Assembly (NCBI GenBank): GCA_965207065.1 | Contig: OZ242260.1 | Location: 3,936,001 to 4,000,000 of the forward strand | DNA from: a bacterium | Lineage (GTDB): Bacteria > UBA8248 | Direction: 5' to 3' | DNA: 64,000 nucleotides | In this document: in pieces, positions 48,980-56,900 of the stretch | Position numbering within the stretch: the stretch's first letter is position 1 | How the letters are laid out: each line of letters begins with the position of its first letter | Notes under the pieces: generated by a model | The model's database searches: none | The model's input: only the letters and a program-made list of their open reading frames with translations | Told to the model about the DNA's origin: nothing | Translations under genes and position numbers: made by a program

Positions 48980-49173
48980 CAAACGCTCGCTCCTCGGGGT
49001 TGTTGAAAAAGGCCTCGTTGGGGGTGTGATGGTTTTGTAGGGGCCGCATATTATGCGGCCCGTGTGCCCCTAACGGGGAGGGTCGCATAATATGCGACCC
49101 CTACAACTTCACATCCGTCGAACCGAACCGCAGAGTCGGGACTTTTTCAACAACCCCGAGGAGCGAGCGTTTG
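48980..49173. mobile_element. MITE with perfect 32-bp terminal inverted repeats enclosing a REP doublet
   Basis: CAAACGCTCGCTCCTCGGGGTTGTTGAAAAAG (48980-49011) is the exact reverse complement of 49142-49173. Confidence 0.8.
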
Positions 49174-49916: not shown

Positions 49917-50287
49917 CCCGAACCGAGCGCCACGGTCGAAATTCCCGAAGAGGGAAATTCGACGCCCCTACGGGCCACCGCGCCTGTACGCCACGCGGCG
50001 GGATGATATCCCCACATCGCCAGAACGTATCTGTAGGGACAGGCCCCCGTGCCTGTCCGAGGCCACCGTGCCTGCACGCCACGCGGCGGGATGATATTCC
50101 CACATCGGCAGGACGTATCTTTGGTAGGGACAGGTCGCGACCTGTCCCTACGGGGTCGGTGGCCGGAATGACGGCCCAAGGCGCGCGCGGGAGGGCCACG
50201 GCAGCGTTTGACGAAGCCCGCGCGCCCTTTTTATACTCATACACCCACACGAGGGTTCCGATCGGCCCCACTCCGGGGAAAGAACGC

Positions 50288-50539
50288 GTGACGGCGTACG
50301 AATACCTCAGCATCATCGCCACCTACGGCTACCTGGCCCTCATCTACCACGGCATCCGCACGATGGAGCGAACCTGCGAGAAGAACTACGGGGACTCCGA
50401 GCGCAAGCACAATGAAACGATGGCCGAATCCGAGCGCAGACATGACGAGTTCATGACCGAATCCGCGCGCAGGCATGACGAAGCGATGGCCGATATCCGG
50501 CGCAGGGAAGAGGAAGCGATGTCCAGGCGTTTGTTGTAG
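50288..50539 (+). CDS. Small coiled-coil repeat protein, copy 2 (C-terminus cut by a REP)
   Basis: GTG start, TAYEYLSIIATYGYLALIYHGIR; the stop TAG is part of the GTAG of a REP. Confidence 0.72.
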   Translation: MTAYEYLSIIATYGYLALIYHGIRTMERTCEKNYGDSERKHNETMAESERRHDEFMTESARRHDEAMADIRRREEEAMSRRLL

Positions 50540-50813
50540 CGGACAGCCCCGTGGAGGGGCTGTCCGACGCCACCGCGCCTGTACGCCACGCGGCGGGATG
50601 ATATCCCCATATCGGCAGGACATATTTGTGGTAGGGACAGGCCCCTGTGCCTGTCCGTGGTCGCGACCTGTCCCTACGGGGTACGGGGTCGGTGGCCGAA
50701 ATGATTACGGGGTCGGTGGCCGGGATGACGAAGGACGACCACGGGGGGCCGGAGAATCCAATGGGCTGGTCCCCACGAAATCTTCCGTGGAATGAAAACC
50801 GGGGTCCCTGGAG

Positions 50814-51434
50814 ATGAAGGACAGGAAAGCGAACAGGTTGGAGGGATACGATTATTCGGAAGACGGGTGTTATTTCGTGACGATTTGCGTGCAAGGCAGA
50901 GAAGAATTGTTCGGTGAAATCATCGGCGGTGAGATGGTTTTGAGCGAGGCGGGAGAAATCGTAACAGCGCGATGGCAATGGTTGTCCGAGCGATATGATT
51001 ATGTCGAATTGGATGAATACGTCATGATGCCGAATCATTTCCACGGCATATTGATCATCCAATCCCGCCGTAGGGACAGGTCGCGACCTGTCCGGGGTTC
51101 CCGCGCCTGTCCAACGCCCCCGCGCATGCACGCCACGCGGCGGGATGATGTTACCACATCGCCAGGACATATCTGTGGTAGGGACAGGTCGCGACCTGTC
51201 CCTACGGATACGTTGAAAATCAAATCATTGTCGGAATTGATAGGCGCGTTCAAAACCACGTCGTCGAAACGTATACGCGAAAACGGCTTCGCTTCCTTCA
51301 AATGGCAACGATCGTTCTACGATCACGTGATCCGGGATGATCTGGACCTGAACCGCATCCGGGAATACATCCGGGACAATCCGTTGAAATGGGCGCTCGA
51401 TGAATACAACCCGGCAAACCACGCGGCGGGATGA
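50814..51434 (+). mobile_element. REP-associated tyrosine transposase (RAYT, Y1 HUH family)
   Basis: RL.GYDYS..G.YFVTIC, MPNHFHG, WQRSFYDHVIR and EYIRDNP..W. Confidence 0.93.
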
Positions 51435-51732
51435 TATTCCCACATCGGTAGAACGTAACTGTAGGGACAGGTCGCGACCTGTCCCTACGCGGCCGGTGGC
51501 CGGAATGACGAAGGGCGACCACGGGGATAGGCGCCTTCGAGGCGGGCGGCTACAGGTCGAACTTCCCGAAGAGGGGAGTTCGACGCCCCTACGGGTCCAC
51601 CGCGCCTGCACAACCCGCGGCGGGATGATATCCCCACATCGGTAGAACGTAACTGTAGGGACAGGTCGCGACCTGTCCCTACGGAATCGGTGGCCGGAAT
51701 GACGAAAGACAACCACAGAAGCGTCCACACAC

Positions 51733-51767
51733 AAAAAAAGCGGCCCCTCATCCGGGGCCGCCTCTTT
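51733..51767 (-). terminator. Rho-independent terminator of the lipoprotein operon
   Basis: GCGGCCCC/GGGGCCGC stem with a 7-nt U tract on the minus strand. Confidence 0.8.
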
Positions 51768-52022
51768 GAATCCATCCCTCGGCGGGGTTGCCAAGCGAGT
51801 CCAAACCAGCTATAGAAACTGCTGGGGGTTACTCATTATTCCCTGCCCACGCTGAGAGGACTCAAACTCTGTCGCATGGGCCGGTACAATTTGCTCCCGA
51901 CGATGTAGAGCAACCAATGAGTAACCCCCAAAAGAAGTCACCCCCTCTTTCCCGGCAACCTGCCCTTTCTTCCGTCTAGTTTTCATCAGGCCCGGCCCGC
52001 AGGCCAAAGGCGTCCTGCGCTC

Positions 52023-53702
52023 TTACCTGTGCGCCCCGAACGACCCGATGAAGGCGGTGCTTCCCGCCGGATTGCTTTGCTGTTTTACGTAAAAGGTTCC
52101 CGCAACCGAACCGGGAGCCTGAGGCGAGTACGTTGTTGTTATCGTGGTTTGTATGTTGGTCGGGTCCGTTCTATCCGTGTTTGTTGTTTGGGACCTTGTG
52201 ACCCTATGCCCAAAAAACTGGCCCTTCCAATCGCCACCGTAGGATTTTCCGTCAACCACGCCGACGGCCGTGCCAGCCGCAAAAGCGGGGTTTATATCAT
52301 CAACGAGGTTCTGTTTCTGCAGTTCGATGCTGCCATCGATTGATTGTCCGCCGGCGGTGATGTTCGTTACTTCGCCCTGAATGCTGCCCGTGTTCGTAGC
52401 TGTACCGGTTGGATTCCGGAACTCGGCGTTGAGCGTAACGTCCGCCGTGAAATAGCTTGTATCTCCACCCGCGAGGTAAGCGCCGTTCGCATTCCCGCTG
52501 TAGGTGGCCTTTACGTCTTTACCGTCGTCCACAATTGCGTCGATGGTGTTCACAGTAGTGGTTGCACAATTTCTTGTAGTACTTCCGTTCGCACCAGATG
52601 CTTCAATACCACTGCAGAAAGTCTGAGCAGTTGTTGCGATGGGCTGGCTCCCGTATGCGAATGCCGAAATCGTGGAAGCTCCAAAATTGGCGCCCACAGT
52701 AAGCCAGATGCCGGCGAGCAGGTAGTCGGTGTCGCGAAAATCCATTTCTGTGTACCGGTCATCGCCATCACTTAGATCAGTGTCTTCCACGACGTTTGTT
52801 CTTGTTCTTACATTGAGTCTCGTTTGCGTAATGTCAGTGTAGGCGTTGACGAAGGTGGAGCCGTCAGCGTTTTTCAGATCGAAGCCATGGGGGAGGCGGC
52901 CCGTTCCGGTGAGGGAGGGCGTCGTGCTGTCCGATGTAAGACCCTGTACCACAACCGTTCGCTGTCCGGTCACCCTGTCAGCGCCGGTCCCTGTATTCCC
53001 GGGGAATGTGGCGCAAGGCGCAGTACAAGTCTCGGTCTTATCATTGTTTATAGTCGTGACCATGGCCGAGCCAACGACAATGCTATCGGCTGTCACCGCG
53101 CCCAAAACAGCGTCTGCGAGGAGTTTGTTTTCTCTCACGTGCTTGATGAGCGAGGAGTTGTTCGTCAAGGCGATCACGTCCGCTTCCCGTTGTCTGCGAG
53201 CTTCCGCAACCGCGTTTACGGCGCTTTGGACCGCCGCCACAGCCGATTGTGCGCTTCTCAGGCGGGAAAGCGCCGCGTTCGCATCCGCGACCGCCATTTC
53301 CGCCGCCGCAGGCGTGGTGGCCGCATTCCCGGCGCTGCTCGCGCCTTCGACGCCCGCCAGGGCTGCCTGCGCGTCGCCGGCATGAGCGAGAGCGCTTGCT
53401 ATCTGATCCGCCGTAGCGTCTTCGTGAGTCTGCACCGCCGCCGCCGTCGAACTCGCCGTTTGCGCCAGATTACGGGCGTTAGAGACGATGCCTGCGAGCG
53501 TATTTCTCGCCTCGGCTATCCTTTCCTCATCCGTCGGCCCCGGCTCCATGCAGTCCGGGTACGTCCCGACTTGCTCCTGCGGGCATTCCATCACCGGCGT
53601 CGTCGCTGAGCCGCCGCCCCCGCCACCGCCGCAACCGGAGGCAAATGCCGCAATGCACACGACAAGTACCGCCAATCCAAAATATCTGAGCATTTTCATC
53701 AC
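52023..53702 (-). CDS. TbpB-like surface lipoprotein
   Basis: Lipobox ASGC followed by a Gly run, Ala-rich helices, and a C-terminal barrel ATYSG.A.G.Y...WKGQFFG...AGTF...GSFGAHR. Confidence 0.8.
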   Translation of the reverse strand: MMKMLRYFGLAVLVVCIAAFASGCGGGGGGGSATTPVMECPQEQVGTYPDCMEPGPTDEERIAEARNTLAGIVSNARNLAQTASSTAAAVQTHEDATADQIASALAHAGDAQAALAGVEGASSAGNAATTPAAAEMAVADANAALSRLRSAQSAVAAVQSAVNAVAEARRQREADVIALTNNSSLIKHVRENKLLADAVLGAVTADSIVVGSAMVTTINNDKTETCTAPCATFPGNTGTGADRVTGQRTVVVQGLTSDSTTPSLTGTGRLPHGFDLKNADGSTFVNAYTDITQTRLNVRTRTNVVEDTDLSDGDDRYTEMDFRDTDYLLAGIWLTVGANFGASTISAFAYGSQPIATTAQTFCSGIEASGANGSTTRNCATTTVNTIDAIVDDGKDVKATYSGNANGAYLAGGDTSYFTADVTLNAEFRNPTGTATNTGSIQGEVTNITAGGQSIDGSIELQKQNLVDDINPAFAAGTAVGVVDGKSYGGDWKGQFFGHRVTRSQTTNTDRTDPTNIQTTITTTYSPQAPGSVAGTFYVKQQSNPAGSTAFIGSFGAHR

Positions 53703-53837
53703 TTGCCCCCTGAGGGTTACGTCCCCTTCCGGGAAAGAAGGGGGCGGGCGGTTGAAACCAGGTCCAATGAATCGTTTGCTTTGAGAACCCCCGGCCCCGG
53801 GCTCAGAGAGCCCGAGGCCGAAGGGAGTCGTGCGTTG

Positions 53838-55574
53838 TTACTGCCTGTGTGCGCCGAACGCGCCGATCAGGCCCATCTTGTTGTCCCGGCTGGCCGCGCC
53901 GAATGTTCCGGCAACACCCGTCGGGTGCGTGGTGGCCGTGCCGTTCGGACCGTATAGCTGACCGCCCCAGTTGCCCCTGAGACCGGCTCCACCGAGAACG
54001 CCGTCTGTAGCGCCTGTGAACCTTCCAGCTGCGCCATCTGTCTCAGTCAATTCGGCTTTCACCAGATTCAGGGAGCCGTCAACAGCTTGTCCGGCGGCCT
54101 TGACGTTCGTAATGCTTCCCGAGACCGTCGCCAGAAGAGCGGTGTTCGTTGCGCCGCCGAAGTTGACCTCGAGCGAGGCGTCCGCGTCGAAGTACTGGAC
54201 CATGCCGCCCGCTGTATAGAGGCCGGTGGCACTTCCTGCATACGAGGCTTTACCCGTGATAGATGCAGTAACCTCATACGGCTCATTGCCGTACACGAAG
54301 GCGCCTGCCTCGGCGGGATCGATTGGGATGGCATCGCCATTATCAGCTATCAGGGAGTCCCTGCTGGAAGCGGTTACCCACATACCCCAGGCCATGTAGT
54401 CTTCGTCGTGACCGGGATCTTTTCCTGTGGCGGTTCGGTATGTGTATCCAGTATTCTCTACAATTTTCCCGTCTTCACCCACGCTTATGGCACATGGGGT
54501 AGTGGCGGGATCTGCACAGTAAATTTGAGCCGTAACCGCGACATTGTTGTCAGTGGGATCCAAGTTGAGCAACACTTCAAAATTGCTGCCATCGCTCGGT
54601 ATATCACCCGTCAATACAGCAGTTCCTTCTAGATCTGCTGTTATTTCAGTTCCTGCTCCCGTATATATGTTCTTTTCAACCGACGCTTCGATGTCCGTGG
54701 TGACGACGAGATGAGATTTCGTATTGTCGCTTGTTGTGCGTACCAGATCTGCGGCTTCGTTTCCTTTGATATGGAAACGTGAAGGCTCTTCACCCGTCCG
54801 CATTCGATTTACCGCATCAGTACCGCCATGGTCAATCGTGAATGTTGATCCACCATCCTTATGCACCACGAATGAGACTCCATCTACTGCGCTTACATCA
54901 GTCGTAGACGTATAATTGGGAGGGGTACTGGTTGCGCGCTGGTTTAGCATACCTAAAGTAGTACCAGCAGTACCATGGGTAGGAGTACCAAATCCTCCGG
55001 CAACCGCTACCGCCAACCCTGCGGTAGCCGAATTTGTCATTGCCTTTGGCGGAGTCGAACCTTCCAGCTCGGCATTTTCGATGTCGTCGCCGTTGAGCAG
55101 CTTGTTCGACAGGTTGACAAGTACCAGGCTGCTCATGCCGGACGCCATCTCCGCGCTGGCTTGGGCCGTCTCGGCCGCCGTCTTATATTCCCCGGCCATC
55201 GCCGCAGTTTCGGCCATCGCCGCCGCGTCGGACGCCTCCTTGGCCGCGTCCGCATACATCTGCGCGTTGCCGGCCGCCACGGGGTCCACCGCGCCGCCCA
55301 CGGCAGCCATCGCCGCCATGTAGGCCGCCATGGCGGCTTCCTGCGCGCCGCTCAGGGCCATTTCTTCGTCAAGGTCCGCGGCGGAGGTGCAGGAACCGTC
55401 CGCGTTATACCGGCCGCCGTCACCTTCGCACATTTCCTGCGGGGTCGGGTCCGGCATGGCGGGCGGGTCCGGCGTCGCAGCCGTTCCCCCGCCGCCGCCG
55501 CAGCCGGCCAGCGTCAGCGCGAAGGCCGCCGCCAGCATGAATGAAAAGATTCTGTTTCCGTCAAATTTCATCAC
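53838..55574 (-). CDS. TbpB-like surface lipoprotein
   Basis: Lipobox LAGC-GGGGG; ASYAGSATGLY...WGGQLYG...AGTF...GAFGAHRQ. Confidence 0.8.
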   Translation of the reverse strand: MMKFDGNRIFSFMLAAAFALTLAGCGGGGGTAATPDPPAMPDPTPQEMCEGDGGRYNADGSCTSAADLDEEMALSGAQEAAMAAYMAAMAAVGGAVDPVAAGNAQMYADAAKEASDAAAMAETAAMAGEYKTAAETAQASAEMASGMSSLVLVNLSNKLLNGDDIENAELEGSTPPKAMTNSATAGLAVAVAGGFGTPTHGTAGTTLGMLNQRATSTPPNYTSTTDVSAVDGVSFVVHKDGGSTFTIDHGGTDAVNRMRTGEEPSRFHIKGNEAADLVRTTSDNTKSHLVVTTDIEASVEKNIYTGAGTEITADLEGTAVLTGDIPSDGSNFEVLLNLDPTDNNVAVTAQIYCADPATTPCAISVGEDGKIVENTGYTYRTATGKDPGHDEDYMAWGMWVTASSRDSLIADNGDAIPIDPAEAGAFVYGNEPYEVTASITGKASYAGSATGLYTAGGMVQYFDADASLEVNFGGATNTALLATVSGSITNVKAAGQAVDGSLNLVKAELTETDGAAGRFTGATDGVLGGAGLRGNWGGQLYGPNGTATTHPTGVAGTFGAASRDNKMGLIGAFGAHRQ

Positions 55575-56205
55575 TTTTGAGTCCTCCTAGTCTCGTGACA
55601 TTAAAGAGCTTTGCAACACAAAAAATCTGAAGTGTTTGGATTCGACCTCCTTTCCTTGACTTTCCGACTTTCCTTGAATCCTTCGTTATCGGGCTTCTTT
55701 CGTTTCGTCGTGTTTCAATTCATCGGAGCGGGGCCGGTTCGCGCGGCCGCCGGCCCGGACATCTGAGTCCGGGCCGATGGCCGGCTTATCCACGAGACTG
55801 GTGTGGGATGCGTTGCGAGTTTCATGATGGATTGAGTCCTCCCGCCTCGTGATATGAACCTTCTCCGGCCCGCGCCGGAATTCTCAAGTCTCCTTCTTCA
55901 GGCGCCTTCCGGCTTGCGTGCTTCCCTGGCCGGAGCGCCGCCCCGGCGAACGAAGCGCCGGGCGTCTTTCTGACAGGTTCACGAGACGGGAGAGGGTTTT
56001 GTGGCGTGCTGCATCATGGGTTGAGTCCTCTTAGCCTCGTGAGTTGCTGCTTCCCCGGCTCCCGCCGGGCTTTCCGTCTTTCTTCAGGACCGGAGCCGCC
56101 GCTTGCGCGAACGCGAAGCTCAGGGCCTGTGCCTGAATCGATTCACGAGACTGGAGAGGGTTTTGTGGCGTGCTGCATCCTGGGTTGAGTCCTCTAGCCT
56201 CGTGA
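55566..56205 (-). promoter_or_regulatory. Tandem leader array: three hairpin-enclosed micro-ORF units plus the homologous lipoprotein RBS
   Basis: TCACGAG(G/A)C..GAGGACTCAA..ATG motif at 56143-56205, 55979-56042, 55791-55852 and 55566-55598. Confidence 0.75.
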
Positions 56206-56509
56206 TTTCGTACTGCATCCGACCGGAATCTTTCTGGGTCATCGTCTTCCGGTCTGTCAAGCCATGCGCAAGTGCGGGCTTAGGGTTCCCGGCTCATCCA
56301 GCTTTCGCGGCGTGATCCGCGTCGTGTCGAGCGGGCGGCCCTGATAGCGACTACTCTCGCGTATTGCTTGACATATATGATAGTGTGGCAAGTATTCCGC
56401 TCTTGTCAACCCTTTAATTGAACTTGCGCGCAACTTTCAATCCGTCCGCTTCCGCAGGGTGACGGATCGAGTATGAACCAACGGGGTTTGATGATCAAAC
56501 GGGAGGGGG

Positions 56510-56900
56510 CGTAGCCGGACAGCCCCCAGGAGGGGTTGTCCGGGGCCTCCGTGGTTGTCCTGAATGACAGAGGGGTTGTCCCTGCAATAAATGCGGTTTC
56601 GTTCATCATCGATCCCGTAGGGACAGGCCTCCGTGCCTGTCCTCATGGCAACCATCCTGAAAAAGGACAGGCACGGAGGCCTGTCCCTACGGTCGAAACC
56701 CAACCGACGAGGGAGGAACCGTGTTACTACAATCCCATCGCGGCGTGCGTGGGTGTGATGGTTTTGTAGGGGTCGCATATATGCGACCCGCATTGTGACG
56801 GCGAAAAAGCACGGGACGCATAATATGTCGGACATATATGTCCGACCTACACATGGGCGGCGGTCCAACCATCTCCCCCCAAAACCCCCCCTACCCCCCC
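56510..56900. repeat. Mixed GTAG-REP cluster
   Basis: GTAGGGACAGGCCTCCGTGCCTGTCC inverted doublet, GGGTCGCATATATGCGACCC and GTCGGACATATATGTCCGAC. Confidence 0.8.

Follow-up and report, generated by a model that had tools for sequence, protein, structure and literature searches.

Related RNA Systems

The small RNAs OppZ and CarZ of Vibrio cholerae are described as being cut from 3' UTRs and as repressing their own operons (PMC7398697). By position and by proposed logic, these are the closest counterparts of the element described below, which lies behind a lipoprotein operon in a 64,000-nt stretch of bacterial DNA (the whole of this stretch is referred to as the window). Like OppZ and CarZ, the window element is encoded in a 3' UTR on the mRNA strand, its 3' end would by position fall at the operon's intrinsic terminator, and it is complementary by sequence to the translation-initiation region (TIR) of its own operon, a predicted match kept in 11 of 11 orthologous loci. 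However, the two show no sequence or structural relation to the window RNA, which folds as a three-way junction and offers two loops as candidates for pairing. RNAs of the OppZ and CarZ kind are stable small RNAs, released by RNase E, that repress the translation of their targets; such processing, Hfq dependence and repression would be putative features of the window element. Finally, because the element occurs in many copies behind paralogous genes, and also in free-standing form, cross-regulation is implied rather than pure self-regulation.

By copy number and by the anti-Shine-Dalgarno-like character of their loops, the closest systems are instead CcsR and the other "cuckoo" RNAs of the Alphaproteobacteria, which are described as multi-copy, often tandem RNAs with anti-Shine-Dalgarno-like pyrimidine motifs in their hairpin loops (PMC8034643). 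In Rhodobacter, these RNAs derive from a 3' UTR via RNase E, and the cuckoo RNAs are described as two simple hairpins with CCUCCUCCC in each loop (PMC8034643). The element differs in both respects, as its loops read CCUCGUGAU or ACAUCGUCGG, and UUUGAGUCCUC, in place of CCUCCUCCC, and its fold is a three-way junction; it also belongs to a different phylum and has no Rfam match.

The Window Element and Its Fold

The lipoprotein operon is read from the minus strand, and the stop codon of its last ORF lies at 52023; the element begins 89 nt beyond this stop and is followed, 55 nt 3' of its outer helix (P1), by the terminator. The features of this part of the window are as follows.

53838-55574, minus strand: lipoprotein gene 1, 578 aa (ORF; orthologues in 10 genomes)
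52023-53702, minus strand: lipoprotein gene 2, 559 aa, lipobox ...ASGC, C-terminus FIGSFGAHR (ORF)
51820-51933, minus strand: three-way-junction RNA element, window subtype "W", member of a multi-copy family (nhmmer, covariance model, covariation, fold)
51916-51930, minus strand: P1, 5' arm, reading UGGGGGUUACUCAUU on the RNA (sequence read; covaries with the 3' arm across copies)
51891-51913, minus strand: P2 hairpin, with loop UACAUCGUCGG at 51897-51907 (fold, covariation)
51842-51884, minus strand: P3 arm, with apex GAG[UUUGAGUC]CUC at 51856-51869 (fold, covariation)
51823-51837, minus strand: P1, 3' arm (complement of the 5' arm, covariation)
~51733-51765, minus strand: intrinsic terminator of the operon, 8-11 bp G+C stem plus U7 (sequence, fold)

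The original prediction had described a perfect 15-bp inverted repeat enclosing a loop motif between the last stop codon and a terminator, and each of these parts is present in the sequence. Specifically, TGGGGGTTACTCATT at 51823-51837 has its exact reverse complement, AATGAGTAACCCCCA, at 51916-51930, and the repeat encloses GCTGAGAGGACTCAAA on the plus strand at 51851-51866. The terminator at 51733-51765 on the minus strand is likewise borne out by sequence and fold, and is absent from the output of a consensus terminator scan. On the gene strand, the 118-nt stretch folds at -56.6 kcal/mol (z = -5.85), a value equalled by none of 200 shuffles, and the window copy scores 89.7 bits (E 1.8e-19) against the covariance model R1. 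The apex of P3 is complementary to GAGGACUCAAA.

A coding reading of the plus strand was dropped, since the start codon after GAGGACTCAAACTC varies among copies. A promoter scan of 51500-56600 returned 0 sigma-70-like sites. As a side observation, the P3 apex of the window subtype (51856-51872, minus strand) and the start of the genome's own 16S rRNA (L111:1508-1530) have AGAGTTTGA in common; with two small indels the likeness extends to the flanking TCCT and CTCAG, possibly by chance.

A Multi-Copy RNA Family Restricted to One Genus

The stem and loop of the window belong to a folded RNA that had not been described before, occurs in multiple copies and is restricted to one genus. A search of the whole genome with the stem arms located a second copy, with the same arms and a homologous interior in the opposite orientation, and the contexts of the loop motif yielded further copies with arms that differ but are still complementary to one another. 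In total, nhmmer identified 10 copies in the 4.48-Mb genome, all alignable over ~110 nt and all conforming to the three-way-junction fold: P1 is a helix of 15 bp, P2 a hairpin of 6-7 bp with a loop of 9-11 nt, and P3 an arm that is longer and interrupted, with GAG[UUUGAGUC]CUC at its apex.

Within a phylum sample of 51 genomes, searches with a covariance model built from the 10 copies identified 3-16 copies of the element in each of 16 genomes among the 22 others of the genus, and thus in 17 of 23 when its own genome is included. Outside the genus, neither the 19 genomes from elsewhere in the family nor the two of the order gave a match, and the seven genomes of another family returned one marginal match (E 8.7e-4). 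The matches per genome sum to 117, which, after removal of four weak opposite-strand echoes and the marginal match, leaves ~112 forward-strand copies. At E <= 1, Rfam 15 held no family for the window copy or for copies of subtypes A and B, and a search of the literature (main texts) on the apex motif and on small RNAs of this lineage gave no prior description.

Not all copies are associated with genes. The free-standing subtype B is a 108-nt element with apex GAGUUGGGUCCUC, found in intergenic sequence with no convincing ORFs or tRNAs nearby, and many genomes have it in tandem, with two or three copies spaced ~180 nt apart. Its sequence is nearly invariant, while its flanks average 57% identity. 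A free-standing copy appears to be present in all 17 element-bearing genomes; in 12 of these subtype B was verified by sequence, and in the other five its presence is deduced from match length and score. No promoter could be assigned to the free-standing copies. A conserved palindrome, ATGACCGTTTGGTCAAAT, preceded by TGCACTATAG, is seen ~100-290 nt upstream of subtype-B copies (L016:4700-5400, L049-L057), and may be a regulator site or a promoter for these RNAs.

Covariation and Strand of the Fold

The fold was assessed on 68 copies (63 of them distinct) aligned to the model; as the alignment was fitted to the model, the resulting pairing counts lean towards it. Standard pairs fill 95.9% of 2241 cells, relative to 88.8 +/- 0.3% in shuffles (none of 500 reaches the observed value), and both sides have changed at 27 of 36 pairs, relative to 13.3 in shuffles. 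In a control in which the 3' partners were slid by 1-3 columns, pairing falls to 38-60%. In P1, 98.9% of cells are paired and both sides have changed in 10 of the 15 pairs; for example, GGGGGUUGCCCGUUG in one arm is paired with CAACGGGCAGCCCC in the other among the copies. In an independent MAFFT alignment, P1, P2 and the base of P3 are still supported, and 13 of 23 predicted pairs are compensated. The stems covary, and the junctions and two loops are nearly invariant.

The same data indicate which strand carries the structure. G.U cells number 268 and A-C cells 34, the reverse complement would pair at 85.4%, and covariance-model scores are ~120 bits on the gene strand relative to ~30 on the other; taken together, these results identify the structured strand as that of the lipoprotein mRNA. 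In our view it is very probable that a structured RNA exists on the mRNA strand and that the elements form a new structured RNA family, which is strongly supported by the comparisons above. Whatever its function, a family of ~112 copies with clear covariation and no Rfam match is usable for deposition and annotation.

Genomic Setting and the Lipoprotein Genes

Typically, the element follows a lipoprotein gene. In its own genome, 8 of the 10 copies lie 57-132 nt 3' of the gene that closes a lipoprotein operon and share its strand, and among the non-free-standing copies whose loci were fetched, 38 of 46 lie 6-132 nt downstream of a same-strand ORF ending in ...GAFGA[HNKR]... This placement holds for both the first-gene and the second-gene lipoprotein types, and terminator-like hairpins with U-runs follow most copies by 60-100 nt. 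Of the remaining eight copies, one is truncated by the edge of its contig, and the other seven lack an ORF of this kind in the same range. An own-genome copy with a window-type P2 loop (C1:116750-116866, plus strand; L012:9751-9867) follows a PIN-like ORF and a small ORF, with no lipoprotein gene, and a similar copy is seen in genome G014 (L060:2745-2861).

Multiple copies per genome, terminal inverted repeats of 15 bp and near-identity of copies within a genome would equally be features of a MITE-like miniature mobile element that has spread in the genome. Such an origin is very improbable, given that 38 of the 46 copies occupy one position relative to one gene family and are always on its strand, and that the number of copies follows that of the lipoprotein genes. 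The two copies compared show no target-site duplication, copies at many unrelated sites with such duplications and empty sites in sister genomes were not seen, and the conserved interior and covarying stems are unlike those of decaying MITEs.

The lipoproteins themselves had no family or match in sequence searches of Pfam, NCBIfam and PDB. Atlas points to TbpB_B_D-like surface-lipoprotein clusters (score 0.88), which should be taken as a lead only. Among the orthologues of gene 1, known from 10 genomes, the N-terminus is conserved and the body of the protein variable. In the five element-less genomes of the genus compared, there is no close homologue of the lipoprotein, three giving no match and two only weak ones (best E-values 7.2e-4 in G007 and 5.0e-7 in G010). 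The lipoproteins form a fast-evolving family, unnamed in current protein libraries, and the element serves as a marker of the 3' ends of its genes.

Orthologous Loci, Leader Units and Inversion

Upstream of gene 1, the operon has a bipartite TIR, consisting of a box and an extended Shine-Dalgarno (SD) sequence, and three leader hairpin units.

56142-56205, minus strand: leader hairpin unit 1
55978-56042, minus strand: leader hairpin unit 2
55789-55852, minus strand: leader hairpin unit 3 (UCACGAGGCGGGAGGACUCA ... GUCUCGUGG)
55575-55598, minus strand: bipartite TIR of gene 1, UCACGAGACUAGGAGGACUCAAAAGUG (box and SD identical in 11/11 orthologous loci)

The layout of this operon has orthologues in 10 other genomes, giving 11 loci with its own, and the order of leader units, TIR, variable lipoprotein genes and 3' element is the same in all 11. 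Orthologous leaders are made up of units of the form UCACGAGGC[U/C][A/G]GAGGACUCA...GUCUCGUGA, one to four of them, the number ranging from 1 to 4 between genomes in loci L098-L107, and the TIR reads UCACGAGACUAGGAGGACUCAA(A)(A)GUGAUG. Downstream of the TIR come one or two lipoprotein genes, in which the signal peptide is conserved and the bodies, in proteins of 510-1353 aa, are very different. The element, of 104-106 nt, is near-identical in the 11 loci and lies ~100-200 nt past the stop codon in flanks that are unalignable; its apex, ACAGAGUUUGAGUCCUC, is unchanged in 11 of 11.

Conserved 5' ends (TIR and signal peptide) and conserved 3' ends (the element) around highly variable coding sequence, repeated in many paralogues, constitute the layout of cassette-exchanging families, and an inverted match of 11-15 nt flanks the operon. 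It could accordingly be proposed that the element works as DNA, either as a recombination anchor bounding variable lipoprotein cassettes during gene conversion between paralogues or as an inverted-repeat arm for inversion of the operon. In the pilin loci of Neisseria, for example, a conserved repeat downstream of variable surface-protein genes acts as DNA in recombination. The placement here is the same, 3' of variable surface-protein genes, but the covariation, like the G.U bias, is indicative of a fold in RNA. We consider a role at the DNA level unlikely, since the compensatory changes and the 8:1 excess of G.U over A-C indicate selection on the RNA fold of a single strand.

With regard to inversion in particular, the original prediction had offered an inverted DNA site flanking the operon as its alternative; inversion finds no support, and all 11 orthologous loci are in one orientation. 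The contigs of three sequencing runs are colinear and contain no joint between 51.85 kb and 56.0 kb, although rare variants could escape contigs. The inverted match is, moreover, very short, and no invertase was seen among the ORFs of the window, where the one neighbour tested against Pfam is a Y1-transposase-like ORF. The attC sites of integrons were considered as well. These are imperfect hairpins that end in an inverse core and a core site, vary in the centre, and form arrays beside an integrase. The comparison was rejected, since the ends of P1 depart (by eye) from the core consensus, the centre is conserved, and the copies are dispersed in the genome, where every one has a leader and a terminator to itself.

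Two observations concern sequences close to the conserved parts of these loci. In five genomes (L100, L101, L102, L104 and L105), a repeat of ~60 nt (GGGAGGGAATAAATCAAACGCTC...GACCCCCAGC) has been inserted at least once right after the element, re-using CCCCCAGC, the end of P1. The leader units of the window also carry mini-ORFs (MQHATKPSPVS, MMQHATKPSPVS, MKLATHPTPVSW...). These were rejected as conserved peptides, being unconserved in sequence; because several orthologous units have no AUG, it is the hairpin, rather than a peptide, that seems to be conserved.

Complementarity to Translation-Initiation Regions

The sequence GAGGACTCAAA, with at most one mismatch, occurs five times in the window, once on the plus strand (51856) and four times on the minus strand (55576, 55831, 56020 and 56184). 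Shuffles of the window lead to an expectation of 0.86, and one in 100 of them reached five. The original prediction had taken the four minus-strand occurrences for ribosome-binding sites (RBSs). One of them is indeed the TIR of gene 1 (55576-55598), but the other three are upstream leader hairpin units, and gene 2 has an RBS, upstream of 53702, that is without the motif. The proposed antisense match to the gene 1 TIR and to the leader units holds up, with duplex energies between -18 and -22 kcal/mol that 0 or 1 of 300 shuffles equalled. The exact 11-mer occurs 14 times in the genome; since nine of these are within element copies, the 11-mer is not a common word. Both partners, furthermore, are kept in the 10 orthologous loci examined, so that two of the conditions named in advance as refuting the original prediction, a common motif and a match absent from orthologues, do not apply. 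What could not be found is covariation between loop and TIR: the apex and the SD are both invariant across the 11 loci, so that there is conservation but no compensatory change for that pairing.

Two loops of the element are involved. The apical loop of P3, UUUGAGUCCUC, is complementary to the extended SD, GGAGGACUCA(AA), of gene 1 TIRs and to the leader units, and the loop of P2 is complementary to a box (UCACGAGG or CGACGAUG) situated 2-4 nt upstream of the SD. Since RNAduplex, when given the whole element against TIRs, returned long, spurious duplexes with huge internal loops, loop segments were used in its place; the shuffles for these duplex energies keep mononucleotide composition only. 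The apex and its own gene 1 TIR would form 11 Watson-Crick pairs and one G.U pair (by eye), at -19.3 kcal/mol, with 1 of 300 shuffles as good. For an 18-nt apex segment, energies in the same range of -18 to -22 kcal/mol are predicted against the TIR in the window, each of the three leader units, the type 2 TIRs described below and the first-gene TIR of other operons, whose first genes have a common RBS, CAGGAGGACUCACUAAAUG, in this and other genomes. The corresponding value for second-gene TIRs is -14.8 kcal/mol, with 15-22 of 300 shuffles as good. As the gene 1 TIRs are paralogous, the many matching TIRs amount to few independent events, and a further caveat is that the anti-SD look of CCUC-containing loops can arise from composition alone.

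The box that is matched differs with the loop. In subtype A, the common one, the P2 loop reads CCUCGUGAU and is exactly complementary to AUCACGAGG, a box that precedes GAGGACUCA by 3-4 nt in the window leader units, at -13.8 to -16.0 kcal/mol (1-4 of 300 shuffles as good). The W loop, ACAUCGUCGG, is complementary to CGACGAUG, found 2 nt upstream of GGAGGACUCA at the "type 2" lipoprotein locus of the same genome (C1:599417-599671, minus strand; L068), at -14.6 kcal/mol (5 of 300 as good). It has no match in the TIR of its own operon (-5.5 kcal/mol, 252 of 300 as good). At the type 2 locus the TIR occurs twice, as TCACGACGAT[G/A]AGGAGGACTCA, the copies 233 nt apart, and the pair is conserved in most genomes of the genus; the 529-aa lipoprotein of this locus is followed by a plain terminator, with no 3' element. 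Genome G004 offers a single further case, in which the window-subtype element is absent and UCACGAGGAUG, matching the subtype-A loop, is found at the second locus. The pairing of loop variants with box variants was assigned post hoc, and consists of two variants and this one anecdote.

Genome-wide counts of the bipartite site may be compared with controls. The pattern TCACGA-N1-9-GAGGACYCA occurs 10 times in the genome, as against 0 for each of two control patterns and 1 for the swapped order, and 70 times in 14 of the 23 genomes of the genus, as against one control match. Nearly all of these sites are at two loci, namely the window-type operon and the type 2 locus. A match at position 3606717 of the own genome appears to fall inside a recombinase-like reading frame and is probably due to chance.

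A structured 3' UTR RNA need not act by antisense, and it is quite possible that the element is real but serves as a protein platform, in protection or stability of the 3' end, or in localisation of mRNAs for exported lipoproteins, in which case the likeness of its loops to anti-TIR sequence would be incidental or a relic of the element's origin. Such a role is about as likely as the specific anti-TIR mechanism. Near-invariant loops and junctions on covarying stems are what one would expect of an RNA that binds a protein or ligand; the apex is unchanged behind genes with a different RBS of their own (AGGGAGGAAUUGUAAUG in L059); in the leader units, a CCUCU...CUCGUGA farther downstream is predicted to pair in cis with both boxes; and the apical loop of subtype B yielded no conserved target, a search with the 11-mer GAGGACCCAAC giving counts near the control level apart from self matches. 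Set against these points, the two loops each match one of two adjacent TIR boxes in the same gene family at a constant spacing of 2-4 nt, the controls for the bipartite pattern yield just 0, 0 and 1 matches, and the free-standing intergenic copies suit a trans-acting RNA better than a stability element working in cis.

Proposed Mechanism

The best reading of the complementarity, which we hold tentatively and with somewhat less than even confidence, is that the element may be a 3' UTR-borne, anti-TIR regulatory RNA resembling OppZ and CarZ. The RNA would act by antisense pairing to translation-initiation regions, either as part of the full-length mRNA or as a 3' UTR-derived small RNA excised together with the terminator hairpin. 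In such a mechanism, the apical loop of P3, UUUGAGUCCUC, would pair with GGAGGACUCA(AA), which is common to the first genes of the operons and to the decoy-like leader units, and the P2 loop would pair with the second box, which precedes the SD by 2-4 nt; the partners would be CCUCGUGAU and AUCACGAGG in one case, ACAUCGUCGG and CGACGAUG in the other. Because boxes and loops follow one another in the same order from 5' to 3', they could not join in one continuous linear duplex, and each loop would have to form a loop-strand helix of its own; the arms are of unequal length, ~7 bp for P2 and ~14 bp for P3. The predicted outcome is translational repression of the RNA's own and of paralogous lipoprotein operons, amounting to feedback together with cross-talk in the gene family, and the leader units might be sites that are sequestered in cis or that compete for the RNA.

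The original prediction had likewise envisaged a 3' UTR-derived small RNA, or long-range pairing, in feedback control. The location in the 3' UTR, the strand and the conserved antisense match are all in keeping with this, but self-feedback is not the sole reading; strict self-feedback sits uneasily with a loop that is kept behind genes with differing RBSs. If the RNA acts as proposed, 3' UTR feedback would be extended from single operons of model Proteobacteria to surface lipoproteins encoded by a whole family of paralogues, in a lineage that is unstudied, and would involve an unusual two-loop recognition of a bipartite ribosome-binding region.

It is tempting to take the anti-TIR mechanism one step further, to a network in which two-loop 3' RNAs recognise a bipartite "address" (box plus extended SD) in the TIRs of other members of the family, with variants setting the pattern of silencing. 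This is a speculative extension, and on the sequence comparisons given above we think it rather improbable. In such a network, the loop variants CCUCGUGAU and ACAUCGUCGG would decide which operon silences which, and the tandem leader hairpins, which copy the address, would be decoys or thresholds. If true, it would provide for hierarchical or mutually exclusive expression of surface antigens without any rearrangement of DNA.

Additional Repeats and Hairpins

A second form of RBS pairing was considered for the subtype-A operons. In 7 of 15 subtype-A first-gene leaders (e.g., L012:1285-1415), [A/U]GAGUCCUC is found ~57 nt upstream of the RBS, where it is predicted to sequester GGAGGACUC in a 9-bp hairpin; the anti-RBS word is the same as that of the 3' element. 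As a cis RBS-sequestering hairpin this candidate was set aside, for it folds as predicted but no better than shuffles (z = -1.29) and is present in those 7 of 15 leaders.

The window also contains palindromic repeats of other kinds. Near-perfect long hairpins at 56609-56696 and 49025-49113 gave sub-threshold matches to microRNA families of Rfam, and these matches were taken as chance ones to long palindromes, which look like another class of palindromic repeat rather than RNA genes. Finally, four exact copies of the palindrome GTAGGGACAGGTCGCGACCTGTCCCTAC lie in the 1.6 kb just beyond the operon terminator (50124-51682). One of these copies is within an ORF on the plus strand (50814-51434), the C-terminal part of which matches IS200-like Y1 transposases (Pfam Y1_Tnp, E 3e-5), and by its sequence this ORF looks like a REP-associated (RAYT-like) gene that has been invaded by its own repeats.
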